From a virus (taxonomy: Duplodnaviria > Heunggongvirae > Uroviricota > Caudoviricetes): a stretch of DNA of 64,000 bases. The stretch lies in IMG/VR virus record IMGVR_UViG_3300028591_000080, positions 31,745 to 95,744 of that record; one strand, written 5' to 3'. The stretch's first letter is position 1. The number at the start of each line of letters is the position of its first letter. The notes under the pieces were generated by a model. The model saw only the letters and a list, made by a program, of their open reading frames with translations. It searched no databases and was not told the DNA's origin. Below are positions 4,101 through 60,085 of the stretch, piece after piece. The position numbers were made by a program, and so were the translations under genes.

Positions 4101-6080
4101 TTAATATTCCATATTTGCAAGTTCTAGAGCCCAATCAGCGATCTCATATCCAGCATCCTCTTTAGGAGCTTGTTGTCTTTGTAGGCCTTCACTGAATTTA
4201 ACTTTAGTATTTGCATTTGTTAAAGGTAAATGACTCATATTTGACATTGTCATACCTTCATTTAAGATTTGATCACATACTTGATCTACATCATCTGTAG
4301 TATAGTTTTTGTCTAGTCTACTTGTGATCTCTGAAGCTCTAACATTTAACATATTAGCTTTTGATTCAACATATTTTTGCATTACACCTAAATACATTGA
4401 TTTGTACTTCTTAGCTACATCAGTTCTTTCAGCATATTTTTGCTTATAGTTTGTAGCTTGTTCAACTAATTGTTGTTTTAACTTAGTAACTTCTAATTTA
4501 GTAGAATCTAAACTTTCAGTTAATTTGTTATTAGATAATTTTTCACTTAAAGCTTTAATTTGGTTATCTTTTTCAGCTAACTGATTGTTTAAGTTTTGAA
4601 TTTCTAATTTTGATTTCTTATATTGAGACGCAACCTGACTTGTTCTATTGAAAGCTTCTTTGTATTGGTTAAGTTCCTTATCTAATTCATTAACCTTAGC
4701 ATCACTAACTGTCTTTTCGTTTTCTAAAGTCTTAACTTTTTGTTCTAAAGCTTTATTTTCACGAACAGTTTTCTTGAAGTCCTCTATAAATGAATCATCT
4801 ACTAATTCCTCTGCTCCAGTATCACTAGCTGCACCGTTTTCGTTTCCGAATACATCAATAGTTTCTTCAGTTTCAGGATTATCTATGTTTTCATCGTTCT
4901 CTTCAGGAGCGATGGTACCACCTATAACAAGGTTATCTTCATCAGTCTTATCAAAATAAAGGTTAATATTCATTTCTTTATTATCAATTTCAACTGGTAG
5001 TACTTTTACTACTGCATCTTTATCAAGACCTTTGAATGCATCTGTAATTTCTTTTACAGTAAATTCATTCTTAGGTTCAAATTCTTCAGATTCGTCATCA
5101 GACTTGTCATCTTTCTTCTTTTCTGACTTGTCCTCTTTTTTATCTTTTTTATCTTCTTTTTTATCTTTATCTGAATCTTTTTCTTCTTCTTTATCTTTAT
5201 CTTTATCTTCTGGTTGATCTTCGTCCTTTTTAGCTTCGTCTAAATCATCTAAGCCTTCGTTTAACCAGCTATCGAAATCATCAATATTTACATATTCAAT
5301 TTCAATTCCATCTGGTGTTGTTTTTGGAGCATTATTTAAATCAAACATTTTATCTGAGATAGCTTCAGTTACAACATTTTCTGGACTAAGATTTTCATCA
5401 TCTAAGTTTATCTTTAAATTATCTAAAGCATTTTCCATAATTTTTCGATCTCCATCTGAAGCTGTACTTAAAGCTTCTTTTAATTCTCTCTTCATTTTCT
5501 TCATAGCGGTTTTTTGTTTTGCATCATAAGATTCAACGAATGTTAAACGTGCATCTTTAACTGCTGGAAGTAATACTAAATCAAAAGTTTGAAAATCATA
5601 AGAAGTTGGATCAACAGACTCATGTCCGTCATAATCAGAAATTAATTCACCAGAACCTCTTGAACTAATACCTCATTTAAAACCATACTTAGCTAAAGTA
5701 TAAACAATTTTACCACTTGGGGTATCTAGGATATCAACATAAGTAATTAAATGTCCATCTTTATCTTTTTTAGGTCTTTCTGGAAGAATAGCTGCAATGT
5801 TAATTGAAGTAGTTTCTTCTCTATCTCCTAATGGGTGGTCTAGTTCCATTGGAATACCACCATTATCAAACATTTCTTTTACTATTTCATTTTTTTCAAA
5901 TACATTAGTCCATAACTCATCACCATAGAAACGATCATTTCTTGTTGGTGCAATGAATGAAGCACAAGGACCATAAAGTCTACCAAGAATTCCTCTTGAT
6001 TGTTTTTCTTCAGGAGTTAATTCTTGAAAATGTAATGCTTCACGGATTTTATCTGTTGATAAATTCGTAGTGTTATTCAT
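4101..6080 (-). CDS. Prohead protease (T4 gp21-like) fused to coiled-coil scaffold; 1 in-frame TGA at 5673
   Basis: ELDHP motif. After the TGA it reads GISSRGSG...FDLVLLPA in frame into ORF 4101..5504. GGAGG RBS before ATG 6080; 659 aa. Confidence 0.88.
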
Positions 6081-6123
6081 GAACTTACCTCCATTACATA
6101 TCATTAATCAATTTGATTACAAA

Positions 6124-6133
6124 TAATTTAGCA
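6124..6133 (-). promoter_or_regulatory. TGCTAAATTA motif (putative late promoter)
   Basis: Exact copy 44 nt upstream of the protease start. Confidence 0.6.
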
Positions 6134-6160
6134 AATAATTCTTAGTTACTATTTTAAAAA

Positions 6161-6646
6161 TTAATTACCTGCAGGTTCTGTAACTGGTGCTGCTGGTGCA
6201 TCAAATTCTGCAGAGAATTCTTTTCCACCATAAGTAAATTTAGCAAGATACTTATTTGTTTCTTGAATAAGTGTACACTCTACATCTTCAACAGTAGCTT
6301 GTTCGTGGCACTTAGTGCATATAAGTGTAAAATCTGCAGTATGATTTGTAGCATCAAATGAAGACGTTGAAATTGACCAATCATGAGCACAAGTTGAAAC
6401 AAATAACTTTCTAACTTCTGTTAACTCTGGATCAACTTTACGATCAATAGCTCTATTTGCACCTAGTACATATCTGATTGCATCACCATCTTGATAAAAG
6501 TTAGCAGTCTTTAATGTTTGAGCTTTTGTTTTATCAATGATAGTTTCATCAGCAGCTGGATTTAAAACATCTTTAGTAGCATGTAAAGTTCTTACACCGT
6601 CTTCATTAACAGTATATACTTTTTTATAACCATTCTCTAATTTCAT
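6161..6646 (-). CDS. Hypothetical virion-region protein with C/H metal-binding motif
   Basis: 161 aa, AGGAG RBS, CAHDW...CTKCH. Has its own TGCTAAATTA at 6707-6716. Confidence 0.7.
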   Translation of the reverse strand: MKLENGYKKVYTVNEDGVRTLHATKDVLNPAADETIIDKTKAQTLKTANFYQDGDAIRYVLGANRAIDRKVDPELTEVRKLFVSTCAHDWSISTSSFDATNHTADFTLICTKCHEQATVEDVECTLIQETNKYLAKFTYGGKEFSAEFDAPAAPVTEPAGN

Positions 6647-6706
6647 TTAATATCTCCTTAATTGTTAATTTGAGAAGTTGAAAAAGATTTAAAAATCTAA
6701 ATCATT

Positions 6707-6716
6707 TAATTTAGCA
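6707..6716 (-). promoter_or_regulatory. TGCTAAATTA motif (putative late promoter)
   Basis: Exact copy just after the upstream terminator. Confidence 0.6.
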
Positions 6717-6736
6717 GATTTTATAAAATAAAAATA

Positions 6737-6762
6737 AAAAAAGGTGAATTAATTCACCTTTT
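6737..6762 (-). terminator. Intrinsic terminator
   Basis: AAAAGGTGAATT/AATTCACCTTTT palindrome with a U-tract on the minus strand. Confidence 0.7.
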
Positions 6763-6787
6763 AAATGTTTAACTATTTTAAATATTT

Positions 6788-7258
6788 TTAAGATAATTCT
6801 CTTCTACCACTTATATATTCTAAAACTAATAAGTCTGATCGAACTAATCTTAATAATTTTTTACATAAATCTAAATTGCCAGTTTGTCTAAAATTTTCCA
6901 AAGCTTGTAATATTTCATTTAAACGAACTTCATTAAAGAAAATATCTGAAACGTTTTCATTCTTATTTTTATATAAGAAAATTTGAGTCAATAAGCTAGA
7001 TAAAACTATTAATACTTCAGAATCATCTAATTCTTCATTTACAAGATTTACATATAATTGAGATTTTGATTTATTATGTTTTTGTCTAAGAACCTCATAG
7101 AAGTTTGCAGCATTCATGCCTTGGTTTTCTACAATAAATTTTAATACTTCTAATGGTACATCTTTAGATAACATTAATCTTCTAATATATGAATTTACTT
7201 CTTTACCTTTATCTTCTAGCTCTAATAATAAATTCATGCAATCATTTTTAGATAACAT
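6788..7258 (-). CDS. Hypothetical protein
   Basis: 156 aa ORF with AAGGA RBS, downstream of portal. Confidence 0.75.
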   Translation of the reverse strand: MLSKNDCMNLLLELEDKGKEVNSYIRRLMLSKDVPLEVLKFIVENQGMNAANFYEVLRQKHNKSKSQLYVNLVNEELDDSEVLIVLSSLLTQIFLYKNKNENVSDIFFNEVRLNEILQALENFRQTGNLDLCKKLLRLVRSDLLVLEYISGRRELS

Positions 7259-7281
7259 ATTTTATTCCTTTCAAATATTAA

Positions 7282-9345
7282 TTATTTATTTTTAGTAAAA
7301 TCTACTTTATCATCTAATTCTTCTGGAGTTGGAAGATCTTCTGATTCATCTAGAAAATCAACATCCTCGTTTAATGTTACTGCATCTGGGTTAGTATTAT
7401 TGAAAGATTCAGCTGTTGGTAAATCAGTAAGATTTAAGTCTAGATTTAAATCGTCACCTTCACTAGCTGTTTCACCTTCAGAAGCTGGTGCTTCGTTAGT
7501 TCCACCAGCCTCACCTGTACCACCAGGAACATTTGCTGGCTCGGCATTAGCAGCTTCACCATTAGCAGCATCTAGAGCAGCTTGTTTAGCTTCCTCTTCT
7601 TTTTGTTTCTTAGCTTCAGCTTCAGCAGCTTTTGCTAATTTAATTTCTTCGTCTAGTACTTGAAGAATTTCATCTTCACCATAATCAACCATCTTATATA
7701 AATTCTTTAAGATAATTAATCTACTACTCTTTGTTTCAACATCTTGGAATAAAGCATTAGCAGTTGATACAGCATTTAAACGATTTGTTAATTTTTCTCT
7801 ATAATTAAGTTCTTCTTGAGAAACTGGAGGTCTCATCTTAATAGTATATCTATGTACATAAGATTTTAAACCTTTTTTAATACAATATAAATCTACTGCT
7901 GTATTAATACCTTGAATTAAAGCATTTTGAACTTGAGAAACTTTCTTTTGGAAAATTGTTGAAGTAATAGTTAATGCAGTACCACCATTGAATCCAGCAC
8001 CATCTTCAGTTAATCCAAAATATTGTTTAGGAATACCAAATGCACCGTAGAATCTATCATTCCATTTATCTAAGTCAGTTAAATTCTTTGGATCATAATC
8101 TCCACCTACAGTATCAACTGTGATAGCACCTTTACCATTCTTAGTATTATTATAAATCCAGTTTTCGATTGGACCTGGGCTATTATAATCTGAAGCATTT
8201 TTACCACTTAAGAAAGCACGTTTTTGTTCAAACATATCTTTTACTTGGTGTAATAATTGATTAGCTTTAGTTCTATCCATATTAGCTGTTTCAATAGAAA
8301 CAATTCTAAATACTGATGAACGAGTTAATCTTGCAAGTAATAATGCTGATTCAATAAGAGTTTTTTCTCTCCAAATCTTATAAACATCATAGAATAATGA
8401 TTTTCCTCTAATAACATCAAAAGCATAAGTTGTTGATTTTAAATTTGAACGATTCTTAGCATTCTTATCTTTAATGTCAGGTTCCATTATTAAATCAATA
8501 GTTTCTGGGAATCTTGATTGACCATCAGATAGATAAATATGAATATAATCTTCAGCGTCATGAAGTATAATATCATTTGATTTAACTTTATAATTAAATG
8601 ATCCACCACCATTTAATGCATTAGAATTTAAACCAGTATTAGCAGCATATGCATCTTGATTAGCTAATTGAGTAATATCATTTGGAGTTTCGACATATCC
8701 AAAAGTAATATCATTTTGATTTAATTCAAACATAGTAGCAGGATCTGGAACTAATTTTAATCTCCAACAGAATTCATCATTAGCATTCTTTAAATCTAAT
8801 TGAATAGTCTCATTTAAATGAGATTTAGCACTATACATATTTTGAATACTTTGTGAATTAAAAATTGTATTTGAAAAGTCAGAATTTCTTAAATTTTTTA
8901 AATAAATATCACCATATTTAACAAGATTAAATGCCCATCCAAAAATATTTTTATCTACATTCATAGTATTTAATACATAATTTACGAATTTACTAATTTT
9001 TGGATCATCAGATTCAGCTCAAACAATATGACCATTATCTCCAACTTCACAAACATTTTCTGTTAAAATTCTTGCAATAGCTGAAACTGATGCATCTTGG
9101 AACATTGTGTCTAATTGACTATACATATAATCTCTTGAATTTGAAATTTGTGTAAACTTTTCAAGTTCTGAGAAATTTACTCTATCTTCTAATCCACCTA
9201 AAATTAAAATGTCTTCTAACGTTTTATTTAAATCTACATCTAATCGAGTATTATCGTTATTATTAGGAGTCGCTTGAATTAGTGTTCCTACTAATTGAGA
9301 TGCTTGTTTTTTAATTTTTTTAATTTTGTTATCATTTTCTGGCAT
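7282..9345 (-). CDS. Portal protein (T4 gp20-like); 1 in-frame TGA at 9019
   Basis: ORFs 9019..9345 and 7282..8964 join in frame via GHIV-TGA-AESDDPK. Motifs 'KYGDIYL', 'LIESALLLARLTRSS' and 'YGAFGIPK'. 687 aa with an acidic tail. Confidence 0.88.
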
Positions 9346-9361
9346 TTTATTCTCCTAATTA

Positions 9362-11476
9362 TTATATACAAATTATTCCATTAGAAATTGCTATTGAATT
9401 TATAGCATCATCATCTATTGCAGTATCATCTAGGTCTCCATAATATTTTGGATTACCATATTCATCAACTTCAATATATTTTTCTTTAGACATTACATTT
9501 AATAGATTTTTTCCAAAATCATGTTTTTCAATCTCATTTTGACTTGTATTACTTGGTTTTGAAATTTGAACAGTTGTTTCAATTGAATCACCAAAATCAA
9601 ATGAACATTTTTCACCATTTTTACTAGCTGTTCATACTGCACCACAGACTGCATCGGCTTGGTCCTTAGAACCATATTTACCATTTTCAGGGTGGTTGAT
9701 GTGTCCATCAGCTTCACGTTCCAATCCTAATAACTCTTCAGTTAATAGTTTAGCTTTGTCATACATTATGAAACGGCGTTCATAAATTGCTGTTTTAAAA
9801 TAGTGATAAGGTAAACAAACTTTCTTTTTATTTTCTAGCGATGTTGTTCTATCTACTGATAATACTTCTGTTTCAAATCCATCAGCTTTTAATTCTTGTA
9901 AAAGAGTAGCAGATTGGTGAGTATCTGATGTAATCATTTTAATATCAAATCCATTATCTTTTAACCAATTTATAAATATTCTATGCTTTATTGAACTAAT
10001 ATGTGCGCCTCTAGGATTTTTAATTGAAACTGAGAAAGCTAATTTATAAATTAACATCTGAGATTCTACACTAGATTCTTGTAAAATTAATTTTGATAAT
10101 TGACTAAAATCATTTTCGATCATTTTAGATTTATCGAATGATTCATCTCTACCAGTTATTCATACGCCTGCAATACCAGTCATGTCTCCAGACTCAGATA
10201 AGTCTAAGTGAATAAATAATGGTTTTTCTTTGTCTTTATCACTAACTCTACTTAAATCAAAGTATTCTGAATATTGATGTAAATCATCTTCTCCATCTCC
10301 AATTTCAAGTATATCATTCAAGAATGGATTTTCATAATCAGTAGTTTTTGTTTTAACTAATCTTTCACCTGAAATATATTTTAAAGATGCTGCTGTTGCA
10401 ATACCAATGATAGAACAAATTGCTTCATCAAGGTTTAATTGGAATGTATCTAAGTATCCAATTGGAACTTGTCACATTGTATAATTTTTATTTCTATATT
10501 CATCAACTAATTCTGGAGTTGCATCTAATGGTAATAATTCATTAGCAAGAACTTTATCTCCAATAGCTACCCAGAATTTTTGAGGTGAATCTTTTCTCGG
10601 GTCAACTACCCATTGAGGTTCATCTACAATTAAAGTATTTTTACTTTCATTCTTTTGTTTATTTTGAATAAATTCTTCTAGGAAAGATTGTTCACTATCT
10701 TTTGAAGATGCGATAATATTTAATGTAGGTAAGTAGGTACCACGCATGAAACGTGATTTCATACGAGCATCTACTTGAGTAATAATTTTCATCATTCTCT
10801 TCTTAGACTTAACTGGGTCTTGAACAAGAGAGAAGTTAACTTCATCTGTAAAGTTAGCAAACAAAGCACGACCTATGATCTGATTATTACTTGAAGCACA
10901 AATAATTTCAATATGTTTATCAGTAACATATCTCATATTAGTTGTACCATGCATTTCACCATGACTCATAAACCATTCACTAGCTAAAAGCATTGAATTC
11001 ATTTTATCTAATGCGACACCTCTAGCATTTTCTAATGTAATATTCATCATTGAAATACTTAATTTATCAATACTTTGCATTCCATAATATTGATATGGAT
11101 CTCTTAAACAAAGTAATCTATATAATAAATATAATAAACAAATAACTGCTATAGTTGATTTACCTAAACCGATAGCTCCTGTAAATACTATAGTATTATA
11201 TTTTGTTGAAGTATTAGTTGGAAATATATCTTCTAAACATTTTTCTCAGTATGGGAATACTGTAAACTTACCTTCAGCATCATATAATGCATTTCCTAAA
11301 TATCGTTTGTCATGTAAGAATGTATGAATATCTACTGGAAATTCGTCCCATTCCATAGATTGTAATGAATCTAAAAGTTCAGATTTTCCAGTTTTAGAAT
11401 ATTCTTTTAAGATTTGTAAAACGACTTTTTGTTCTTCAGTTGAGAGTTTATTAAATTTTTCTTGATCAAAATTCAT
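9362..11476 (-). CDS. Terminase large subunit; 4 in-frame TGA (11246, 10472, 10160, 9632)
   Basis: Reading through gives Walker A 'TGAIGLGKS', Walker B 'NFTDE', nuclease 'IHLDLS..GD' and 'SKDQADAV'. 704 aa, ends at TAA 9362. Confidence 0.9.
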
Positions 11477-11513
11477 AATATTCTCCAATCTGGATATATT
11501 ATATATTATATAT

Positions 11514-11522
11514 ATAATACAA
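11514..11522 (-). promoter_or_regulatory. TTGTATTAT motif (second promoter class)
   Basis: Recurrent 9-mer, here 38 nt upstream of the terminase start. Confidence 0.5.
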
Positions 11523-11528
11523 TATTAA

Positions 11529-13190: not shown

Positions 13191-13210
13191 ATAAGATAAC
13201 ATAAAAATAA

Positions 13211-27881: not shown

Positions 27882-28434
27882 CATTTTTATCTCCATCAAG
27901 ATCCGCTATGTCTGCATCAATTACTTCAGCTTCATCTTTATCTTTAGAGTAAAGACCTAAAGAACTTAAGAAATCATTAATATTCTTTCTTTTTTGGGTA
28001 TTAATTCCTTCAAGTCTTGGATCTGTAGTTTCAACATTAACATTTGTTGTATGTTTATTAACTTGAATTAATGTATTAGGTGTTTGTCCATTAATTAAAT
28101 TATTATTCTTTTCAATTAAATCTTGAATAATCTTTAACATGTTCATTAATTGAACCATATCCATTTCTTCTGGATGGTTTAATATTCTATCTTTTGTTTC
28201 ACCTAAAACATTATCTAATAGATCACCATAACTATTTGATCTAACAATGGCTTTTTTCTTTTGATTTTGGTTGAATAAATAAAGCAAATCTTTTTGTTTT
28301 TCTTCATTTGAAGTTGTTGTAATTTGGCTAAGTATTTCTAAAGCTTCACGTTTTAATCCATCAATATTTTCTTTTAAATCTTCATCTGATAAATCATCTA
28401 CAAGGACTAAATCTTGTTTTTGTTCATCAGCCAT
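27874..28434 (-). CDS. Hypothetical helical protein (weak candidate for terminase small subunit)
   Basis: 186 aa. Helical hairpin followed by a beta-like 'TLIQVN...NVNV' stretch; function is a guess. Confidence 0.6.
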   Translation of the reverse strand: MADEQKQDLVLVDDLSDEDLKENIDGLKREALEILSQITTTSNEEKQKDLLYLFNQNQKKKAIVRSNSYGDLLDNVLGETKDRILNHPEEMDMVQLMNMLKIIQDLIEKNNNLINGQTPNTLIQVNKHTTNVNVETTDPRLEGINTQKRKNINDFLSSLGLYSKDKDEAEVIDADIADLDGDKNEE

Positions 28435-28436
28435 AA

Positions 28437-28769
28437 TTATACTACCTCATTAATAATAGAATTTAACTTAGCTGCAATAGCTTCAGTTAATGACTCCACT
28501 AGTAAATCTTCTGGTTGAGATGAAGAAATAGACTTTCCAAAAGCACTCTTCATTGATTTAGACGGTACGCTTTTCCAACTTCCATCCTCAAGATTTATGC
28601 TTAATGAACTTACTCCTAAATCTAAAACTAATATTGATTCATTTTGAGCTTTAGCCGTTCTGATTGCTTCACATATACAATTAATAAAAATATCGGTCAT
28701 ATATGATGTTTGCTTTGAAGATAATTTAAATATAGTTCCAAAATCATCTACAATATTTCTTTTAACCAC
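28437..28769 (-). CDS. Hypothetical protein, possibly HU-like DNA-binding
   Basis: 110 aa, GTG start. Helix-helix then 'LVLDLGVSSLSI' beta pattern. Confidence 0.5.
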   Translation of the reverse strand: MVKRNIVDDFGTIFKLSSKQTSYMTDIFINCICEAIRTAKAQNESILVLDLGVSSLSINLEDGSWKSVPSKSMKSAFGKSISSSQPEDLLVESLTEAIAAKLNSIINEVV

Positions 28770-28780
28770 GGATTTTCTCC

Positions 28781-29041
28781 TTAATCTAAATATTTCATAA
28801 TCTTTATTGGATCTACACCTTTAACATTCCATAAAGATCTTTCAGTTTCTTTTTCTAAATTATCTAACATAAAATTTAATTTATGTTGAATACATCTTCC
28901 AATTATATCTTGTTCATCGAATTTATCTGAAAAAATACTATTTATAAATAATAATCTTGTTTTAAAATTTCTATTTTCTTCTAGAAATTTAGGAGACTCC
29001 CAATCGATTCTATCTACCATGATTCTTAAGTGACTCCTCAT
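28781..29041 (-). CDS. Hypothetical protein
   Basis: 86 aa ORF in a tight operon; the start may instead be MVDRID. Confidence 0.6.
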   Translation of the reverse strand: MRSHLRIMVDRIDWESPKFLEENRNFKTRLLFINSIFSDKFDEQDIIGRCIQHKLNFMLDNLEKETERSLWNVKGVDPIKIMKYLD

Positions 29042-39984: not shown

Positions 39985-39988
39985 ATTT

Positions 39989-39998
39989 TGCTAAATTA
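39989..39998 (+). promoter_or_regulatory. TGCTAAATTA motif (putative late promoter), the only plus-strand copy I found
   Basis: Exact copy 38 nt upstream of ATG 40036. Confidence 0.6.
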
Positions 39999-40035
39999 TA
40001 TACATATTATATTTTATAGATCGCGAGATACTATT

Positions 40036-41643
40036 ATGAAATTTGTAGAACAAGAAGAAAATACAAGTGATTTTTTAGATGATCAATTACTAAAATATGA
40101 AGACGTTTTTAATGCATTTGAAGCTATTTTTAAAAATGGTGAATTTGCATGGACTGGATCGAGTGAAAATCCAGCTTCTCGAACAAAATCTGGACATGAT
40201 TTAATGCAAGTTCCTGAAGAAATAGCAAAAAAGATAAAAACACTTGCTCAAACAATCCCAAATAGACCTCCATTTAATAATATGGAATGGTGGAAACGTT
40301 TTCAATTTTTATATAACGCTTATATCGTCGAATCAAAATTATTAAATGCTTTTGAAACTAAACTAAGTTCTTTAGGAAAATGTTTTTATGGAGATGCTGT
40401 TTATAATCAATTAGCAAATCCAAATTCTGATTCAAACTTAGATAATGATTCAAAAAACAATACTCATACAATTTTTGGAAACACAAAAACTTATGGTGTT
40501 CCAGATCTAGTTTTTGTTGATACAGATACAATAAAAAATGAAACAAGAAGATTATGAGTTGAAGTTAAGATGGTTGGAAATAAAGCCGACCTCAAAGCAA
40601 CTAAATTACCAATGCATTTACGTGCATTAAGTAGTAAAACTAACTTAAAAAATGATGTAATTATTGCTTTAGGATTTATATTAAAAGATAGTAAGAGTAA
40701 TCCATTTACTTTAGTTTGAAGATGCGCATTACAGAATGAAAATGGAACTGGCTATTCTTGGAAAAATTTTTTCGAATGTCCTGACTTAGATATAAAACAA
40801 AAAATTAATCAAATTGAACAGGTCGCTGAGGCTGAAAAAGAAAATATTTATAGATCAATCCTAAAATTTGAACTAAAAAACCCAGATGAAGTTAAAGATA
40901 CAGACCTTTTAGGAATGTATAAAGTGTCTGATGTTTATGACCTTAAATATAAAGATAAAACTGAAGAAGAAATTTCTAAAAATAATGATTTAGAAGACTT
41001 AACAGAAGAATACTGGAATAAGTTAGATATATCTAAAGCTTTAACTAATCAAGATGATTGTATCGATAAAATTAAGTCTTTCTATGGTTATGATGGAGAT
41101 ATTACTACTGGTGGTTTCTATATAATGCCAGATGGTACTATAATTAAAACACAAAATCACGCAGATATAGATAAATATTTAATTAGAGCTGGATATATTA
41201 GTTTAAAAGATGGACAAAAACTTAATGAATTAGACTATGGTGATGGAAGTCAGTTTATGGATGCAATAAATTGTGTTCGTATTAGACGTCGTGGTGGTAA
41301 AGATTCTTGGATCCTTCCTTACTGTGTACTTCCTAATAATAATTTAACAACTACTCAATATAATGTTTTAGAATATTGGCTAGAACAAGTTTTAAATAAG
41401 TCACGAGAAGTTCAAGTAAGTACTCAAACAGAACAAAGTAAAGTCTATAAAGCTTGAGATGGTTATACAGCTCAAGATATTATAGATTCAATTAAAATGT
41501 TTTATCGTTCTAAATTCTTAGAAGAGCTAGGTAAAAAACCTAATTATGATTTTATTTTTGATGATTTAATTAATGAAGATTTAGATAATACAGATTACGA
41601 ATTAGAAAAAGATTTAAGCAAAGGTTATTTAGATCAATTTTAA
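40036..41643 (+). CDS. PD-(D/E)xK nuclease-domain protein with C-terminal accessory domain; 3 in-frame TGA (40555, 40717, 41455)
   Basis: 'VPDLVF...RRL-TGA-VEVK'. All segments are in frame to TAA 41643; 535 aa. Confidence 0.7.
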
Positions 41644-50607: not shown

Positions 50608-50609
50608 AA

Positions 50610-51104: not shown

Positions 51105-51631
51105 TGATAGATATTACTAATGCTAAAGACGAAGTAAATAAAGTCGTAGATCAATTAGCTGAATCAGTTGCAGATCTTACTAATGAAATGACTGCAGGAT
51201 TAGATAAATTGATTAAAAAAGTTGCTCTTGGTGTTGATTTAATGACCAACGCTGAAATAAGAGAAACTATGGCTAAGATCAGTGTTGAAGCTTATTCTAT
51301 TGGAATTTTAAAAGAACAAAATTCTCTTAGAGATGCTTGTGCAACTGCCTTATATAAAGAAGCAGCAGCACGTTCATTCTCAGTTACAGCCGGTTCTGTA
51401 GAAGCAAAAAAGAATCAATCTGTTCTAGATACTTTAGATAGACAAGCTGTTTCAATATTGTATAATACTTCGACAAACTTATTAAAAACTAAGTGCGATG
51501 AAGCACATAGAATTGTAAGTGTATTAAGTAATATTTTGATCTCAAGAGCTGCTGAAGCTAAGAATCAATATAGCCCACGTAGTGAATTAGATCAAATGCC
51601 TTATAATAATGATGAAAATGGAGATAATTAA
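51104..51631 (+). CDS. Helical hypothetical protein (possible recombination mediator)
   Basis: 175 aa, coupled between RecU and RecA. Confidence 0.65.
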   Translation: MIDITNAKDEVNKVVDQLAESVADLTNEMTAGLDKLIKKVALGVDLMTNAEIRETMAKISVEAYSIGILKEQNSLRDACATALYKEAAARSFSVTAGSVEAKKNQSVLDTLDRQAVSILYNTSTNLLKTKCDEAHRIVSVLSNILISRAAEAKNQYSPRSELDQMPYNNDENGDN

Positions 51632-52896
51632 TGGCTAAAAAGGAAGCAAAAACATTTGCAGAAGCGGTTGCAAATATAAATTCCGCTAATAAAAAATGAA
51701 AAGTTCTTTCATTTGGTGATCCATCTAGAGATTTAAAGAAATTACCTTTAAAATCTCTTCCAATTGATTTATCATTTAAAGGTGGTTTACCTTATGGACA
51801 ATTAGTTACTGTTTCTGGTGTAGAACATTCAGGTAAATCTTCTTACGCTGCAGCAATGATGGCAAGATATCAAGAAGAAAATCCTGGAAAAGTTTGTCTT
51901 TGGATTGATGGAGAAAATACTCTATTAACTCAAGGTGCATATTTTAAATCTGATTATGGTCTATCTTATGATGAAAGTTGTTTCTTAAGGTATGATACTA
52001 CTGGTAAAGCTGCTGAGGAAATTTTTTCAGATGTTATCGATTTACAAGGATATGATGAAATTGGTATGATTGTATTAGATTCATCTAAAGCTTTAATTTC
52101 AATGGCGGATTTAGATAATGAATTTGTTAAAGATAATGGTCAAAGAGCTTCTATTGCTAAGTCTATGGGTAAATTTGTTAGAGCAATGGTTCAATATCTT
52201 CCTAAGAGAAATAATATTTTATTAGTAATAAATCAAGTAACTATTGAAAAAGAAATGTTCTCAACAACATATACTGAATCTGGTGGTTATTCATTAAGAT
52301 TCTTCCCAAGTGTTAAGATTAGATTTGGTACACGTACATTTACTGCTCCAACTGCTACAGGTTTATTAAAAACTGATATTAGTTCATCTAAAGCTCAAAG
52401 TGACTATGCCGATAAGGTTAATGGAATGCAATTCCATTATGTTGTAGTAAAAAATAGAACTAATATTATGACAAATGCTGGTGGATTTATTACAGTTAAA
52501 TTTGGAAAAGGAATTGATAGAGTATATGACTTCTTAGAGGTTATAGAGACTGCTAAAATTTTATTCCATCCATCTCCTAGAACAGAAGCATTAGTTGATC
52601 CAGTAACAGGTGAAATTTTAAAAGATAGAGTTACAGGAAGAGATTTACAATTTTCAAAACATGCTGAATTAGAAAATTATCTTGAAGAAAATAAAGATTT
52701 CTTTGATGAATACTATTTCCAAGTTTTAGATTTCTTATGTGGTAAGAAAGAAAACTTAAATTTATTAGATCAAAATGTCGTAGCTGAATTAATGGATCAA
52801 GAAGCACAGATTATGAAAGATATTCCAACAGAAGCCGCAGCTCTAGCTGCTGATGGACTTACTGAAGAAGATTTACAAGATGTCCAATCCGTTTAG
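51631..52896 (+). CDS. recA: RecA/UvsX-like recombinase; 1 in-frame TGA at 51697
   Basis: ATG 51631 after GGAG. After the TGA come 'GGLPYG' and Walker A 'GVEHSGKS', then 'IDGE', 'VLDS', 'INQ' and 'KNR'; 421 aa. Confidence 0.9.
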
Positions 52897-53275
52897 AATA
52901 AAATCCGAGAGTTCTGGTGGTAAACCCACCAGATTTTTCTCAGATAAACAAGAAAAAGCTGTAGCAAAAGCTACAGGTGGTAAACAAACAAAAAACTCTG
53001 GTGCTTCATTATTTCAAAAATCAGATGTTTTATTAGACGATTTTACTCTAGAATGTAAAACAAAAACATCAAATTCAGAATCAATTTCTATTAAAAAAGA
53101 ATGGTTTGATAAACAACTAAAAGAAAGTATTCAAATGGGTAAACACTATTCAGCTATCGTAATTAATTTTGGTCCTGATGCTCCATATAATGAAAATCAT
53201 TACATTATTGATGAGCGATTATTTAATATGTTATTAGATTATATTGCAGAATTAAAAAACAATCCAGAAGAATAA
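52880..53275 (+). CDS. Hjc-like Holliday junction resolvase / PD-(D/E)xK nuclease
   Basis: 'QEKAVAK', 'NSGA', 'SDV' and 'LECKT'. Confidence 0.7.
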   Translation: MSNPFRIKSESSGGKPTRFFSDKQEKAVAKATGGKQTKNSGASLFQKSDVLLDDFTLECKTKTSNSESISIKKEWFDKQLKESIQMGKHYSAIVINFGPDAPYNENHYIIDERLFNMLLDYIAELKNNPEE

Positions 53276-53285
53276 GGAGATTAAT

Positions 53286-53642
53286 ATGCCATCAGACATA
53301 ATTAAAAAACAATTATTATCTCTAGAATTAGCTATTCCATCTTCTTATGATCCAGAAACAAATTCTTATTTTATTCCTAAATACTCTGGTGATATTTATT
53401 CAGTAGGTAAAAGCTATCTTATTGAATTAAATAGTGAATTATTATTAACAGATAAAATTTGTGAATGGAAAAATACTAGAAAACCTAGTTCAAAATATTT
53501 AAAAATAACTGTAAACCAATCTATTGCTAAAATGATTCAAGTTATGGGTGTTGAAGCTGACCTTGGAGATTCATTTACTCAAACAAAAATTTGAGAGGGT
53601 TGGTTAAATATAGATTATATAAAACAAATAAAACCACTTTAA
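53286..53642 (+). CDS. Hypothetical protein; 1 in-frame TGA at 53592
   Basis: TKI-TGA-EGWLNIDYIKQIKPL-TAA gives a WxGWL motif. Confidence 0.7.
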
Positions 53643-53674
53643 TTTGTTGTATTATATTATATCGAGGTGATAAT

Positions 53675-54703
53675 GTGGAACAATCTTTAGCCGTAAAATA
53701 TCGTCCAACTGAATTTGAACATGTTGTTGGACAATCAATTAATTGTGATATTCTACAAAGTCAATTAAAGAATAAAAAAATTAAACATGGCTATTTATTT
53801 AGTGGAGCATCTGGTTGTGGTAAGACAACATTAGCAAAGATTTTTGCAAATAAAGTTAATGACCAAGAAGCTCCAATTGAATTAGACTGTGCTTCACATA
53901 ACTCAGTAGAAGATGTAAAAGATATTTTAAAATTATCTAGAAAAAGAGTTTTGCATGGAGAATATAAGGTATTCATCTTAGATGAATGTCATATGTTCTC
54001 TTCAGCGGCTTGGAATGCATTTTTAAAGAGTATTGAAGAACCGTCTGAATTTACTATTTATATCTTCTGTACAACAGAACCAGAAAAGATACCTGAAACG
54101 ATCTTAAATAGATTACAAAGATATAATTTTGGTAAGATTTCTTTAGAAGATATTAAATCAAGATTACAAATTATTTGTAATAGTGAAAATATTAAAATCA
54201 CTGAAGACGCATTAGATTTAATTGCAAAGATTAGTAATGGTTCTCTTCGTGATGCTATTATGACATTAGAACAATGTTCAGATTATTCAGATAATTTAAC
54301 ATTAGATAGTGTTAAAACCGTTGTTGGTGATTTAACTTTATTAAATATGTTGAGATTAACTAAAGCTTTAATTGAAAAGGATCAAAAAACAATCATTGAG
54401 ATTATTACTACATTATTTAATAGTGGGCATGATTTAAAAGCGTTCTTAACTAATTATCTAAGCTTTAATTTAGATTTAACAAAATATGTTTTATTTAGAA
54501 ATATTGATGTTACTGCGATTCCAAAGTATCTAGAACAAAATGTTCAATCTGTTATATTTAATTGTGGAAGTAATCCAAATGAAGCTATAAATTATTTAAA
54601 TGATTTATCAGAAGTATTATTAAAATTAAAAACATTAGTTAGATTCGATTCATCTTATCAAAATACTATTATTATTTCTTTAATATCTTTTATTAGACGT
54701 TAG
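53675..54703 (+). CDS. dnaX: Clamp loader gamma/tau subunit
   Basis: 'LAVKYRP', 'GCGKTT', 'LDECHM', 'AFLKSIEEP' and 'GSLRDA'. GTG start after GAGGTG. Confidence 0.9.
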   Translation: MEQSLAVKYRPTEFEHVVGQSINCDILQSQLKNKKIKHGYLFSGASGCGKTTLAKIFANKVNDQEAPIELDCASHNSVEDVKDILKLSRKRVLHGEYKVFILDECHMFSSAAWNAFLKSIEEPSEFTIYIFCTTEPEKIPETILNRLQRYNFGKISLEDIKSRLQIICNSENIKITEDALDLIAKISNGSLRDAIMTLEQCSDYSDNLTLDSVKTVVGDLTLLNMLRLTKALIEKDQKTIIEIITTLFNSGHDLKAFLTNYLSFNLDLTKYVLFRNIDVTAIPKYLEQNVQSVIFNCGSNPNEAINYLNDLSEVLLKLKTLVRFDSSYQNTIIISLISFIRR

Positions 54704-54716
54704 GTGGTGATTAATT

Positions 54717-55535
54717 ATGAATATTATTGGACAAGAACCAATTATGAATTTAATTAATCAATATACTAGAGAATCACTTCCAAAATCAATATTATTTATT
54801 GGTGAAGATGGTTGTGGAAAGAAATTAATTAGTAATTATTTAGCAAAGAAAGTCGATTTAGAAATTGTAGATATAAGTGAAGAAGTTACTGATGAAGAGC
54901 TAGATTCATATTTATATGGAGTTCATCCAAAAATTTATAGGATTAATCTTGATTTATTTAAACAGAAAAATCAAAACCAGTTCTTAAAATTTATTGAAGA
55001 ACCTACTAAAAACGTTTTTGTAATTTTAACAAGCACTTCTGAATCATTTATACTTCCAACTATATTAAATAGATGTATTAAATTTAGATTTGCTCAATAT
55101 ACACCAAATCAATTAAAAGAAATTGCATCTTTAAGTAATATGCATTTCAGTGATTTAATGTATAAAGTTTGTAAAACTCCAGGTCAACTATTAGATAAAG
55201 ATGATGACCAATTAACTAAACTTTCTACTTTATGTTCTAAAATTGTTCGTTCAATACGTGCTTACACTAAAGAATCTTTTTTAGGAATTTTTACAAAAAT
55301 AAATTATAAAGAAGATTATGAATTGTTTGATTTTAATTTATTTTTAAATGTATTAGAATATGTAGCATTTGATGAGTATTTATTATCCAATAATTTAGAT
55401 TCATTAAAGATTTATGAAATTACTAATAATTATAAGTCTTTATATACTGAAGCAAATAAACCAGTTAAAGAACAATTTATGATAAATTTTCTAATGGTTT
55501 TATATGATAAAGTTGTATTAGGAAGTGATAATTAA
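54717..55535 (+). CDS. Clamp loader delta-prime-like subunit
   Basis: 'GEDGCGK', 'NQFLKFIEEP' and 'LPTILNRC'. Confidence 0.8.
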   Translation: MNIIGQEPIMNLINQYTRESLPKSILFIGEDGCGKKLISNYLAKKVDLEIVDISEEVTDEELDSYLYGVHPKIYRINLDLFKQKNQNQFLKFIEEPTKNVFVILTSTSESFILPTILNRCIKFRFAQYTPNQLKEIASLSNMHFSDLMYKVCKTPGQLLDKDDDQLTKLSTLCSKIVRSIRAYTKESFLGIFTKINYKEDYELFDFNLFLNVLEYVAFDEYLLSNNLDSLKIYEITNNYKSLYTEANKPVKEQFMINFLMVLYDKVVLGSDN

Positions 55536-56455
55536 TGATTAGCTTAGATGAATTAAAACATTCTATTGAAGATGATACTTTAACTATTGATTTATTAGTA
55601 TTTGTATGTAAAGATAAACAAACTTGGTTAGCTGATCAATATATTAATTGGATATGTGACCAAAATGGTTATAAGCATAATCTAATTGATAGTTTAGCCG
55701 AAGTAAATAAGAATTCAGCTATAGCATTAATTGGTGATTTTAAAAAAGATTTAAATATTATTAGAACAGATGTATTTAAAGAAAGTTATGATTTTGATTT
55801 AGTTGAAAATACTATAATTGTTTGTGAAAAAATAGATAAAAAGTTAACAACAAAATTAGAACAATATATTGTTGAAGTTCCAAAATTAACTGATTGGCAA
55901 ATAAAAGATTATATTAAACAAGTTCAATGTCCAACATTAAGTCCAGAAGCAACTGATTGGTTATATACAGTTACAAATGGAAATGTTTATGCAATCGATA
56001 ATGAACTAGATAAAGTTAATCTATTTGATCAAAAACTTGCTAATGAAGTTTTATTAAAACTAAAAAACGACAAGAATTCTCATTTATATGGATTAAATAC
56101 TTTTAAATTCGTTGATGCATTAATAAATAATGATAGATTAATTTTAACTGATATGATAGCTCATAGGACACTATGGGATAGTGATCCAATATTTATTTTA
56201 ACTTTAATGATTAATAAATTAAAACAACTAATTTTAATTAAAGGAAATAGTGGAGTATTACCAACAGATTTAAAATTAACTTCAAAACAAGTTTGGGCAT
56301 TAAAGAATTTTTATAGAAATGTAGATTTAGAGAGAATGGAAAAACAATTAAAATTTCTTTCTAGTATTAATTTAAGATTAAATCTAGGACAATTGGATTA
56401 TGGAAATTCTAAAATATTATTAGATTATATTGTATGTAATTTGATTTCTAATTAA
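55535..56455 (+). CDS. Clamp loader delta-like subunit
   Basis: 'NELDK' and 'FKFVDAL' HolA-type pattern; third gene of the loader operon. Confidence 0.7.
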   Translation: MISLDELKHSIEDDTLTIDLLVFVCKDKQTWLADQYINWICDQNGYKHNLIDSLAEVNKNSAIALIGDFKKDLNIIRTDVFKESYDFDLVENTIIVCEKIDKKLTTKLEQYIVEVPKLTDWQIKDYIKQVQCPTLSPEATDWLYTVTNGNVYAIDNELDKVNLFDQKLANEVLLKLKNDKNSHLYGLNTFKFVDALINNDRLILTDMIAHRTLWDSDPIFILTLMINKLKQLILIKGNSGVLPTDLKLTSKQVWALKNFYRNVDLERMEKQLKFLSSINLRLNLGQLDYGNSKILLDYIVCNLISN

Positions 56456-56546
56456 GTTTTATTTTAGACCTGATAGAAAACCAATCAAATCTAAAAAACG
56501 TTCCTAGAAACGTTATTTTATATTAAATTTTATATGAGGTGATTCA

Positions 56547-57578
56547 GTGGAAACACAAAATAATAGTCCGAATGAAGAAAAAGTTGGAGAAGTAGTCGAA
56601 AAAACTGAATATGAAAAATTTATCGATAAATTACTTGAGTCTAAATGGTCTTATTCAAAAATAGATTGTTTTAAAAGCTGTGGATTTAAATTTAAATTAA
56701 AGTATTTAGATAAGAACTTTGTATACAGTGGAAGTATTGCAACAGAGTTTGGTACAGCAATTCATAAAGCAGAAGAATCAATTGGAAATTATATAATAAA
56801 AAATGAACCTATTAATTATATAAAAATAAAAAATAAGTTCATGATTGATTGTATAAAAGTAAAAAAGAGATATCCAAATGATTGGATAACTAAAGATGAG
56901 TATTCAGGTAAAGACTATGAAACAAAATATCAAGATTATATTCATAAAAATATGTTTTATTTAGAAAAATATCTAAAAGATAATCCAAATTTAGAAATAG
57001 TTGGATCAGAAGTTCCGATTAATTTTAAATTTGATGATACTTGGACATTTACAGGATCAATCGACAGACTATATCGAGATAAAACTACAGATAAGTATAT
57101 AATTGAAGATATAAAATCTTGGCCTAATATTGAGAAGCATAAAGATGAATTAGCAACTCCACTTCAATTTGTAGTTTATTCATTAGCATTAGCAAAAATG
57201 AAGGAAAAAAGCACTGATGATATTTCTTGTCAATATTACCTTCCGATCTCAAATGAGTTAGCTAGTGCTGGACATGGTAAATATATTGAAAAAGGAACAG
57301 CTAAATTAAAATCATTATTTGAAAAAATATTAGCTCGAGAATTTAAACCAGCTCCAAAACCATTATGTCATTGGTGTGAATTCTGTAGAACAAATGAAAG
57401 TGCACCAAATAAATCAAAATGGTTATGTCCTTATGCAAGTGTTTGGACAAGAGAAAGACCAGCCAATTGGTCAGAATTTAATTTTACAACTTTGGAAGAA
57501 TATCCAAAAATCTTAAATCAATATAGGTTGCAACATGACTTACCGGTTTTGCCTAGTGAGTCAGAAAATAAAAAATAG
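56547..57578 (+). CDS. PD-(D/E)xK RecB/Cas4-like exonuclease
   Basis: 'SYSKI...C', 'GTAIH', 'GSIDR', 'EDIKS', 'QFVVY' and 'CHWCEFC...C'. Confidence 0.85.
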   Translation: METQNNSPNEEKVGEVVEKTEYEKFIDKLLESKWSYSKIDCFKSCGFKFKLKYLDKNFVYSGSIATEFGTAIHKAEESIGNYIIKNEPINYIKIKNKFMIDCIKVKKRYPNDWITKDEYSGKDYETKYQDYIHKNMFYLEKYLKDNPNLEIVGSEVPINFKFDDTWTFTGSIDRLYRDKTTDKYIIEDIKSWPNIEKHKDELATPLQFVVYSLALAKMKEKSTDDISCQYYLPISNELASAGHGKYIEKGTAKLKSLFEKILAREFKPAPKPLCHWCEFCRTNESAPNKSKWLCPYASVWTRERPANWSEFNFTTLEEYPKILNQYRLQHDLPVLPSESENKK

Positions 57579-57597
57579 GAATGTAGGTGATTAATTA

Positions 57598-57795
57598 ATG
57601 GCAACAAATGTTAAGGTAATTAAGCGTGATGGTGAATCTGATGAAATGTTATTAAGACGTTTTAAGAGAGAAGTACTTAGAAGTTATGTTCTAGATGAAG
57701 TTAAAAAACATGAATTTTTTAGATCATCAAAAGAGATGGCTCAGTTCAAGCATGATATGCTAATGCGTCATACAAAAAATAAGAAATATAGATAA
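57598..57795 (+). CDS. rpsU: Ribosomal protein bS21
   Basis: 65 aa, 'VIKRDGESDEMLLRRFKREV...LDEVKKHEFF'. Confidence 0.85.
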   Translation: MATNVKVIKRDGESDEMLLRRFKREVLRSYVLDEVKKHEFFRSSKEMAQFKHDMLMRHTKNKKYR

Positions 57796-57797
57796 TA

Positions 57798-57832
57798 AAA
57801 AAAAGAGGTCAAATGACCTCTTTTATTTTTTT
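57798..57832. terminator. Bidirectional intrinsic terminator between convergent operons
   Basis: AAAAGAGGTC-aaat-GACCTCTTTT flanked by A and T tracts. Confidence 0.85.
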
Positions 57833-58579
57833 TTATTCTTGTTCTGCTTGTACCTTAACAAAGTATGGAACGAATACTCCATCAGCAGCTAAAGCATCAC
57901 CAGCATGATAGATTGTTGGAGTTTCACTTGAATCTCCACTCTTAATCCAAGTTCCATCCCAAGCTTCATATTGACCTTCAGGTAAAGCTTCCTCTAGTTC
58001 AGCAATCTTAGCACGCATAGATGCTTGACCAGGATCTGCAAATGTTGATAAAGATGGGAATGCATATAATCCAATTCTTGAAATTTCTACAGCTCCTTCA
58101 TTTTCACCAGCTCTTAATGTAACTGAATATTTTGGAGCTACATTTTCACTGAATTGGATTTTTAACATATTCTTACGAATAATAGGTAATTGTCCTTTGT
58201 TAACTAAAATAGTTGTTGGATTACCATCACCATCTAATAATTCACCATAAGCAAAGCAATTAGATGCTGTGCTGCTTTCACATAAACCGAAATATTTTAA
58301 AGCTGCATCGCTTGTCCAATCTGCAGTTGCTTCATCAAAATAAATAGTATTAGTATTGTAAGCAACGATAGTATCTTGTACAGTAGTATCAAATGTATAA
58401 GAATAAACGTATCTTTGATATCCTTTACTAGTTTCAGGCTCACCACTCATTACATAATATCCACTTGAATTAAGTGTTGGATCAAGTTTAAATAATGCGA
58501 TATAAGGTGTAAAACTGTTGCTACCACCATTTCCTAATAATGTTCTCATTAGTTTTTGTAAATATGCACGACAAATCAT
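57833..58579 (-). CDS. Putative tail/baseplate-associated protein
   Basis: 'YIALF...GYQR...NTNTIYFDEATADW...YFGL' is a common phage tail-associated pattern. Confidence 0.65.
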   Translation of the reverse strand: MICRAYLQKLMRTLLGNGGSNSFTPYIALFKLDPTLNSSGYYVMSGEPETSKGYQRYVYSYTFDTTVQDTIVAYNTNTIYFDEATADWTSDAALKYFGLCESSTASNCFAYGELLDGDGNPTTILVNKGQLPIIRKNMLKIQFSENVAPKYSVTLRAGENEGAVEISRIGLYAFPSLSTFADPGQASMRAKIAELEEALPEGQYEAWDGTWIKSGDSSETPTIYHAGDALAADGVFVPYFVKVQAEQE

Positions 58580-58612
58580 TTTATTTTTTCTCCTAAATTT
58601 TTATAATATTTA

Positions 58613-60085
58613 TTATAATATATAGTATGATAAATTTTCAAGAGATGTTCAATCTGTCTCATAGATTTCATCATACATATTATCTATATAATTTAGCTTA
58701 TAATTTTCTAAATCTTTTAAAAACATTGGTCTAGCTCTTAAAATCTCAGTTTTAACCTTTGTTTTCATTAATATTGTTTTAGTGTTATATATTTCATCTG
58801 ATATAAATATTTTAGCTGATATTCCTAAATCATTATTGATATTTCCTCGAATTGAATCTCGTTTGTCATGAATGAATAGAGACATGGATAAATAATCTCC
58901 ATTCATAGTTTTACCTGAAAATACATTTAATGTTGGAATAATTAATTCAGATTGTAAATCTTCTTGTGTTTTATCTTTTACTGTTAATTTAATTGGATCT
59001 TTAATTGAAACATTTGAACTCAATTTAAAACTTAATAATTTTTGATTAATATTTATTATTAATTGTCCAATAACAGCTAAAGAACATGTTGCTTGAACTA
59101 CAGTATTATTAATAAGACTCTTAAATAATTTTATTAAATTAGTACCATCTTCAATAACACTTCTAACATAAGTCGTATATCTTACAGGTTGCATTCCAAT
59201 AAATGTACCAATTTTTTGTAAATCTTCTAAACAAAGAGTAGTTTTTGTTTGTGGTTTAAAATCAGTTTTTCCACCGTCTGTAACTAAAATTGGTTCTAAG
59301 TTTATTAATTTTGCTGAAAGTGTGTCTATTGGATTGTTAATTTTTTCAGGATTTACGGCACTTGCCCAAGAAATTATTGCTGATAATTTTTCATCAACTT
59401 TAAGATAACAAGCATCAATCGTACGTGGTGTAACAATACTCACTGTAGATACTACTGAAGTTATATCCATTTGTAAGTTTCCGTTTAATGTTGTAACACC
59501 AGTTATATGAATACTACAATTAGAACTTTGAATATCACTAATTAAATTTCCAACTAAAAACATTGCAATATTACCAACATCATCTAAAGTCATAGTAAAT
59601 TTATCTTTGGCTCCAAGAACAAGTCCAGGAGTTAGACTTTGACAATCTTCTGGAAAAATAACACCACCAGCACTTAATCCTGAATTAAAATTAAATTTTA
59701 AAGTTTGAGCTGTTAATGGATTTATTAATGATTTTTCTAAAGTATATATCTGAACAAAATCTGCAGTTTTTATATCACAATTACTTGTACCATCGATATA
59801 AGATGGATATGGTGTTGCAAGTTCAGCAGTATTTTTTGAAACTAATTTTATATTAGTTTTATCAATAATAATTGGTTGATAAGAAACTACACTAATTGCA
59901 GCTTGATAACAAGTATCTAAAGTGTTTTGATCAGCACAATAAACTTTTACAATTTTATCTTCATCGTAAACATCAACTCTAAGTTTTTCGACAAAAGATA
60001 AAATCTCAGACATTCCTAATTTAAAGAATGTATAACTATAATTTTGCTTTTTATATAATAGTAATCGAAATTCAAGAGCATTCAT
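58613..60085 (-). CDS. Putative structural protein; 1 in-frame TGA at 58649
   Basis: ETD-TGA-TSLENLSYYIL-TAA. Beta-rich, within the tail operon. Confidence 0.65.

Follow-up and report, generated by a model that had tools for sequence, protein, structure and literature searches.

The DNA considered here, a 64,000-nucleotide stretch (the window) of the virus record IMGVR_UViG_3300028591_000080, raises the question of whether TGA is read as an amino acid rather than as a stop in this genome and, if so, which residue is inserted and by what means. The window corresponds to bases 31745-95744 of a single IMG/VR record of 230,252 bp that is rated complete by CheckV and has a GC content of 28%. T4-like genes for the head and for packaging lie on its minus strand, among them those for the portal, the large terminase and the prohead protease together with a gp23-type capsid neighbour; genes of DNA metabolism lie on its plus strand. 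The results described below indicate with high confidence that the window derives from a Jade-clade jumbo phage that uses genetic code 4, in which TGA encodes Trp and only TAA and TAG end genes.

A preliminary description of this DNA had reported 21 in-frame TGA codons in 13 genes. All 21 positions hold TGA on the given strand and represent the complete set for real open reading frames (ORFs) of at least 50 aa in the window, the only other in-frame TGAs being two in a spurious antisense ORF (28414-28800). Also as described, read-through proceeds in every case to TAA or TAG, and the fragments called under code 11 fuse into the 13 genes listed in Table 1. As to coding density, a further test named in the same description, the window reached 0.953 when TGA was treated as sense, compared with 0.902 under code 11 and 0.898 for a control in which TAG was the sense codon; the equivalent genome-wide values were 0.922, 0.848 and 0.850, respectively. 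Given that density was gained with TGA as sense and not with TAG as sense, the effect is specific to TGA and beyond that expected by chance.

Read-through restores the Walker A motifs of the terminase and the RecA-like protein, the first motifs of the Mre11-like protein and the GISSRG motif of the protease, all of which lie outside ATG-started ORFs under code 11. Profile matches to Portal_T4, Metallophos, RecA and the prohead protease family phrog_207 span TGAs, the last of these covering residues 10-234 and hence codon 144. Peptidase_S77 genes encoding 616-677 aa occupy the position of the prohead protease gene in relatives. The large terminase has more than 1200 full-length homologues, and searches of PDB sequences with the terminase and the Mre11-like protein returned no match. 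For the fused ORF at 39988-41643, homologue P0123 (37% identity) spans 94% of its length, and the conserved domain (residues 336-551) includes codon 490; translation of this gene may start at the ATG at codon 17.

The terminase genes of two IMG/VR contigs from other samples (L001 and L007, 99% identical) contain the same four TGAs, and the codons are therefore not assembly errors. It is scarcely credible that the TGAs are errors of sequencing, lesions in pseudogenes or stops that leak at a low level. All that would suggest it is that stops are present under code 11, whereas the TGAs recur in these independent contigs and at the same columns of many relatives, fall in essential genes (portal, terminase and protease) and account for every interruption, TAA and TAG never being seen in this role.

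The residue inserted was read from the DNA of relatives. Database proteins were unusable for this purpose because the close relatives are also recoded and had already been translated with TGA as Trp. A total of 80 terminase-bearing loci were fetched and their codons compared, and the resulting terminase alignment comprised 68 full-length genes (window included), 37 without TGA and 31 with one to nine. At column 11246 (terminase codon 81, an invariant Trp), TGG was observed in 42 and TGA in 24 of the 67 full-length relatives, with no other codon present; a pairwise scan of the same column gave 53 TGG, 26 TGA and again nothing else. When all 23 columns with TGA in any relative were considered, the 37 TGA-free terminases had Trp at 31%, compared with a background of 1.2%, followed by Tyr (19%), Phe (15%), Gly (0.4%) and Ser (0.2%).

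A similar picture was obtained for several other genes. The portal column 9019 contained TGG in 53, TGA in 19 and a Phe codon in one of 73 relatives, and column 11976 contained TGG in 25, TGA in 11 and Phe codons in two of 38. Only TGG was observed at column 33263 of the Mre11-like gene (six of six relatives) and at column 53592 (five of five), and at column 29563 TGG was found three times and Phe once. In the terminase, Trp followed by Tyr and Phe was observed at columns 10160 and 9632, and Leu, Ile or Trp at column 10472 (codon 339). Columns 14972 and 14681 gave four Trp and three Ala, and four TGA, two Trp and one Tyr, respectively. For column 20275 few relatives were available, giving Tyr, Phe and Trp once each together with two gaps; column 27475 had Tyr in three relatives, column 30172 Phe in three and Trp in one, and column 29971 Gln in three and Pro in one. 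Searches with single proteins yielded one locus for the RecA-like protein and five for the Mre11-like protein. The genes at 39988-41643 and 58613-60085 had no match in five related genomes, and their columns were read from database homologues instead.

A number of columns weigh against Trp or fail to inform on it. Relatives have Pro, Leu, Ile or Gln, none of them aromatic, at 5673, 10472 and 29971; column 5673 as a whole contains Pro, Leu, Ile, Phe, Val and Met and is uninformative as to the residue. The three TGA columns of the gene at 39988-41643 (40555, 40717 and 41455) are all variable and equally uninformative, such that the homologue spanning this fused ORF supports read-through without specifying the amino acid. 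Two sites point instead to Gly. The TGA of the RecA-like gene at 51697, a column with TGA in one relative and Asn in another, aligns to a Gly of Escherichia coli RecA (the second of FGKGS) in a weakly conserved stretch, the alignment with PDB RecA beginning at residue 5. In addition, a 93%-identical relative (L099, a 244,932-bp ENA contig; L099:11421-11438) has GGA at column 58649.

Code-25 phages, in which TGA encodes Gly, exist among those of Absconditabacteria and Gracilibacteria, and the two sites just described are what might be expected of such a code. It is nonetheless very improbable that TGA encodes Gly here. Gly accounts for 0.4% of residues against 31% for Trp at the TGA columns of TGA-free terminases, several window TGAs lie in columns that contain TGG or TGA only, and the UGA-reading tRNA described below has features of tRNA-Trp, not tRNA-Gly. 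The GGA at 58649 is one base away from TGA, and the position is tolerant, Tyr and Phe occupying the same column in more distant homologues. On the codon evidence, the two Gly-pointing sites do not outweigh the columns with only TGG or TGA, and the preference for Trp over Gly expressed in the preliminary description is supported both by these columns, in which the pattern anticipated for code 25 did not appear, and by the nature of the tRNA. Trp thus remains the predicted meaning of TGA, which is a minor codon for this residue, with a share of 13% among the Trp codons of the window and of 17% genome-wide.

It had also been claimed that TGA is nowhere used as a stop. The two window TGAs closest to gene ends, 53592 and 58649, are each followed by a conserved C-terminal tail, and both are therefore read through. 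After 53592, the pattern W-x-G-W-L...Q-I..L is kept in five relatives of 32-36% identity, and the start of the following gene is GTG 53676, preceded by a GAGGTG site, rather than the TTG that overlaps the TGA. Beyond 58649, two homologues of 35% identity (P0134 and P0135) have exactly the same tail, TSLENLSYYIL. Genome-wide, the last 15 codons of code-4 ORFs contain 12 of 137 TGAs and 49 of 657 TGGs (p=0.6), and there is no excess of TGA near ORF ends. The same count in G003, a standard-code relative in which 20% of ORFs end in TGA, gave 50 of 189 TGAs and 54 of 722 TGGs (p=3e-11). Beyond genome position 115 kb, at most two to three candidate TGA stops were found among 195 ORFs. The claim accordingly stands for the window and is upheld by the genome-wide count.

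Table 1. Genes of the window that contain in-frame TGA codons (window coordinates; lengths with TGA read as sense)
Product	Coordinates	Strand	In-frame TGA (codon)	Remarks
Prohead protease (T4 gp21-like), 667 aa	4101..6104	-	5673 (144)	TGA directly before GISSRG
Portal protein (T4 gp20-like), 687 aa	7282..9345	-	9019 (109)	Pfam Portal_T4 74-569 across TGA
Large terminase, 708 aa	9362..11488	-	11246 (81), 10472 (339), 10160 (443), 9632 (619)	
Conserved protein of unassigned function, 514 aa	11529..13073	-	11976 (366)	
phrog_36119 protein, weak nucleotidyltransferase match, 449 aa	13919..15268	-	14972 (99), 14681 (196)	phrog_36119 match at residues 211-444
Protein with weak M48-peptidase match, 410 aa	19411..20643	-	20275 (123)	Single ORF under code 4
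Small protein, 122 aa	27211..27579	-	27475 (35)	Single ORF under code 4
Protein of unassigned function, 275 aa	29395..30222	-	30172 (17), 29971 (84), 29563 (220)	
Mre11-like phosphoesterase, 350 aa	33149..34201	+	33263 (39)	Pfam Metallophos 3-198 across TGA
Protein with conserved C-terminal domain, up to 551 aa	39988..41643	+	40555 (190), 40717 (244), 41455 (490)	
RecA/UvsX-like recombinase, 421 aa	51631..52896	+	51697 (23)	Pfam RecA 8-231
Small protein, 118 aa	53286..53642	+	53592 (103)	16 codons ahead of TAA
Protein of unassigned function, 490 aa	58613..60085	-	58649 (479)	12 codons ahead of TAA

Many relatives carry intein or homing-endonuclease insertions (PF14890, PF14528 and PF13392) in their terminase genes, extending the products to 800-1070 aa (homologues P0014, P0016, P0020, P0021, P0069 and P0097; loci L061, L064-L067 and L074-L077); the terminase of the window has none. 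Past the genes in Table 1, a giant ORF at 60890-64000 (minus strand) continues to genome position 99386 and encodes 2250 aa, with one in-frame TGA past the window end. The close relative L099 has a gene encoding 3060 aa in its place.

The preliminary description had pointed to the rest of the genome as a place in which to seek a tRNA-Trp(TCA) gene and release-factor genes. The former was found, outside the window, and the latter were not. The tRNA(UCA) gene lies on the minus strand at genome 2900-2995, 29 kb upstream of the window. Its 96-nt product scores 57.6 bits against the Rfam tRNA model and is the only UGA reader in the genome, which has eight tRNA genes (the array being cut by the contig end) and one tmRNA. 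Neither a tryptophanyl-tRNA synthetase (TrpRS) nor a release factor was detected in the genome, there being no match to PF00579, PF00472 or PF03462 in searches for which the positive controls worked.

The tRNA(UCA) has an A1-U72 pair, G2-G5 paired with C, G73, the anticodon loop CUUCAAA, a 7/5 fold and a 4-bp D stem. Its acceptor stem, G73 and anticodon loop match those of bacterial tRNA-Trp. It aligns to the tRNA-Trp(CCA) of related phages (89% over nt 7-42 in comparison with that of G004), with the exception of a 21-nt insertion in the variable region. Judged by these alignments, the tRNA(UCA) is derived from a phage tRNA-Trp(CCA) by a C34->U change, Trp-type features being seen in the acceptor stem, at G73 and in both the D arm and the anticodon arm.

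Two further RNA genes were noted in the course of this analysis. A full-length ROOL RNA (RF03087; score 252 bits, gathering score 99) lies at genome 1356-1973 on the minus strand (L002:1356-1973), ~30 kb upstream of window base 1, with the tRNA array on one side and the suppressor tRNA on the other. The tmRNA (genome 228755-229128, minus strand; L003:2755-3129) scores 86 bits against Rfam, and the tag peptide predicted by ARAGORN ends in ...QRVAALA; a tmRNA is also encoded in the relatives G002 and G006.

ARAGORN labels the tRNA(UCA) as tRNA-SeC because of its anticodon and 96-nt length. This label, together with the long variable arm, G73 and G2:C71, raises the question of whether TGA might encode serine or selenocysteine, a long extra arm and G73 being recognition features of seryl-tRNA synthetase (SerRS). 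Such an assignment is most unlikely. The selenocysteine identity in the label follows from the anticodon alone, and the 7/5 fold and 4-bp D stem differ from the 8/5 fold and 6-bp D stem of bacterial tRNA-Sec. Ser accounts for 0.2% of residues at the TGA columns, and the 137 TGAs of the genome are distributed over structural and other ordinary phage genes, unlike selenocysteine use, for which only a few UGAs, accompanied by SECIS elements and located in redox enzymes, would be expected. Furthermore, the loop of the extra arm is a conserved copy of a Trp anticodon loop, not that of a generic class II arm. Some mischarging of the tRNA(UCA) by SerRS may nevertheless occur.

The insertion in the variable region of this Trp-type tRNA forms an additional 5-bp stem closed by a 7-nt loop, N-U-C-C-A-A-A, that copies the anticodon stem-loop of tRNA-Trp. 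The D arm is followed by the UCA arm, a spacer of about 5 nt, the CCA arm, GGGU and the T arm. When the exact extra arm of this genome was sought in IMG/VR, no further copy was found. When IMG/VR was searched with a pattern in which the UCA anticodon arm and the T loop were fixed, 20-40 bases between them were left free and the arm itself was unspecified, 18 contigs matched. Of these, 17 were aligned with the tRNA of the window genome, giving 18 tRNA(UCA) in 16 distinct sequences. Across this set, compensatory changes were observed in all five pairs of the extra stem, with 95% of cells paired. The last six bases of the extra loop, UCCAAA, were invariant, and the usual loop, CUCCAAA, is identical to the anticodon loop of tRNA-Trp(CCA). 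No published description of a CCA-bearing extra arm was found in a literature search whose coverage excluded most subscription journals, and a text search of a 2025 preprint on phage tRNA(UCA) (PMC12636597) found no mention of one.

The two-armed tRNA looks, from its sequence, like the product of a tandem duplication of the anticodon arm. Here, a two-headed tRNA-Trp can be tentatively envisaged, with slightly less than an even chance of being correct, in which the UCA arm would read UGA while the CCA arm would display to the host TrpRS the identity element that the UCA anticodon has lost, allowing recoding without a synthetase of the phage's own. Under the code-4 reading as a whole, the tRNA(UCA) would be charged with Trp by host TrpRS, the extra CCA arm supplying the missing anticodon element, and the charged tRNA would compete with host release factor 2 (RF2) at UGA. 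Either arm might serve as the anticodon arm through alternative folding.

The scheme was compared with the gene content of other genomes. Among Jade relatives, G001 (223 kb) has TGA at 49% of Trp codons (423 TGA and 439 TGG), a plain tRNA(UCA) of 75 nt and a trpS gene (281 bits, TIGR00233), with no gene for release factor 1 (RF1). G002 (232 kb; 48%, 475 TGA and 506 TGG) has trpS and a prfA-like RF1 gene, with no tRNA(UCA) detected. G003 (221 kb) uses the standard code and has tRNA-Trp(CCA), with no tRNA(UCA), trpS or RF1. The present genome (G000; 230 kb) combines the two-armed tRNA(UCA) with the absence of both trpS and RF1. The search for RF1 covered this genome and G001-G003. The loci surrounding other two-armed tRNAs were tRNA arrays of low coding density from which the code could not be read, and two whole genomes were used instead. 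These, G006 (136 kb; TGA 16% of Trp codons) and G008 (167 kb; 54%), belong to another lineage or lineages, giving no match to the Jade-type terminase profile, and both have the two-armed tRNA and no trpS. Two more genomes, G007 and G009, likewise have the two-armed tRNA and not trpS. Recoding was assessed in three of the carriers (G000, G006 and G008), all of which are TGA-recoded.

In total, all five carriers of the two-armed tRNA (G000 and G006-G009) are without TrpRS, and both recoded genomes without the two-armed tRNA (G001 and G002) have one, in a small sample in which G006-G009 may be related to one another. The distribution fits a model in which the CCA arm would replace the need for a dedicated synthetase. 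The role proposed for the arm is based on sequence logic and seven genomes. Among the carriers, G006 has an ordinary tRNA-Trp(CCA) 5 nt after its two-armed tRNA(UCA) (L145:8971-9145), and G008 has no tRNA-Trp(CCA) among its 25 tRNAs.

The placement of the window in the Jade clade follows from its terminase. The contig of homologue P0012 (L006), whose terminase is 60% identical to that of the window, is JS_HF2_S141_scaffold_159238, the published representative contig of Jade, a TGA-recoded clade described in Borges et al. (bioRxiv 10.1101/2021.08.26.457843). In a quick tree search, the window and this contig fell in an all-recoded clade of nine rows with SH-aLRT support of 99, and the recoded or standard label required at least four to five changes across the wider terminase group, in which respect it may be noted that the genetic code is likewise reported to vary inside the phage clades of Borges et al. 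Given the well-supported grouping with the Jade representative, the recoding observed here is a further case of known phage recoding, and the statement in the preliminary description that code-4 phages are established is correct.

The means by which TGA comes to be read as Trp could differ if the host itself used code 4, for example a Mollicutes-like organism that the phage follows, with the tRNA as a supplement; this concerns mechanism and not the meaning of TGA. The low GC content and the avoidance of TGA as a stop genome-wide, including in TGA-free blocks, are in keeping with such a host. However, TGA would be expected to be the major Trp codon under a native code 4 at 28% GC, whereas it accounts for 17% of Trp codons and is absent or nearly so over about 90 kb. 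Moreover, the phage has its own suppressor tRNA, its close relatives have TrpRS (G001 and G002) and RF1 (G002), and the predicted hosts of Jade phages are standard-code Firmicutes (Borges et al.). A host with code 4 is therefore unlikely.

The use of TGA is uneven along the genome. The share of TGA among Trp codons reaches 76% at genome 100-110 kb, is 42% between 20 and 30 kb, and is at or near zero (0-3%) at 120-160, 190-200 and 210-230 kb. According to the timing model of Borges et al., the TGA-poor blocks would be translatable before the tRNA accumulates, whereas the TGA-bearing structural, packaging and some DNA-metabolism genes would need tRNA(UCA). The model is only partly supported, as the RecA-like and Mre11-like genes also bear TGA and the densest TGA block is a radical-SAM and sugar-enzyme cluster, not the lysis genes. 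This hot spot, which lies outside the window (genome 104214-111393, minus strand; window coordinates about 72470-79649; L175), contains 30 in-frame TGAs in eight consecutive genes, among which are three radical-SAM proteins and a UDP-glucose-dehydrogenase-like protein, and may be a module that came from a genome with heavier recoding. The motif TGCTAAATT was found 35 times genome-wide, against an expectation of about 7, in most cases at a distance of 10-110 nt upstream of a gene start (for example at window 6126 (genome 37870), 13183, 17266 and 23778, all on the minus strand), and is a candidate phage promoter element. Neither TGCTAAATT nor a second promoter-like motif, TTGTATTAT, separates TGA-bearing from TGA-free genes.

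A practical consequence of these results is that the genome must be annotated with table 4, table 11 cutting 13 window genes that include those for the portal, terminase, protease, Mre11-like and RecA-like proteins. The recoding described adds one more Jade-type phage to the known TGA-recoded phages and reveals a clade with both light (17% of Trp codons) and heavy (about 49%) recoding. This range, and the repeated code switches in the wider group, make the clade good material for studying stop-codon capture. The recoded genomes examined fall into two groups, one with a phage TrpRS and the other with a tRNA whose extra arm repeats the Trp anticodon loop. Should the arm indeed be a handle for the synthetase, it would constitute a new natural route to uncoupling the identity of a tRNA from its decoding and would offer a ready template for orthogonal suppressor tRNAs.

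Like the class II tRNAs (Ser, Leu and bacterial Tyr) and tRNA-Sec, the tRNA(UCA) has a long helical arm between the anticodon arm and the T arm; unlike the class II tRNAs, it has an acceptor stem, discriminator base and anticodon arm of the Trp type, and its extra arm has anticodon-arm geometry and an invariant UCCAAA. In the code 4 of Mycoplasmatales and Entomoplasmatales, tRNA-Trp(UCA) arose by duplication of tRNA-Trp(CCA), and the change is genome-wide, with RF2 lost and TGA the major Trp codon. The codon meaning and the tRNA route (C34->U in a tRNA-Trp copy) appear to be the same in the phage, whose recoding is, by contrast, viral, partial and patchy.

Among phage systems, all 13 tRNA(UCA) tested insert Trp in E. 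coli extract, according to the 2025 preprint (PMC12636597). The same preprint deals with TrpRS:tRNA pairs from Jade phages, and it describes the phage TrpRS:tRNA-Trp(UCA) pairs AP1 and HF2, whose tRNAs insert Trp at UGA and compete with RF2. The tRNA described here resembles theirs in being a phage tRNA(UCA) with predicted Trp identity and differs in that theirs are paired with a phage TrpRS, whereas here the host enzyme would presumably be used. The genome agrees with the Jade clade (Borges et al.) in its size (about 200-230 kb), in a terminase TGA aligned with Trp, in a phage suppressor tRNA(UCA) and in recoded genes in several modules across the genome. Its recoding is light in comparison with the 48-49% of Trp codons of G001 and G002. 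A "code change module," consisting of TrpRS and RF1 beside the suppressor tRNA, has been reported for two Jade genomes and not for all (Borges et al.); unlike those two, this genome has no such module, whereas trpS is present in G001 and G002 and RF1 in G002. The tRNA(UCA) also departs from the Jade clade in its second, CCA-bearing arm, and what is new, as judged from the genomes compared, is a two-armed tRNA(UCA) inside this clade, where the relatives G001 and G002 have a phage TrpRS instead.

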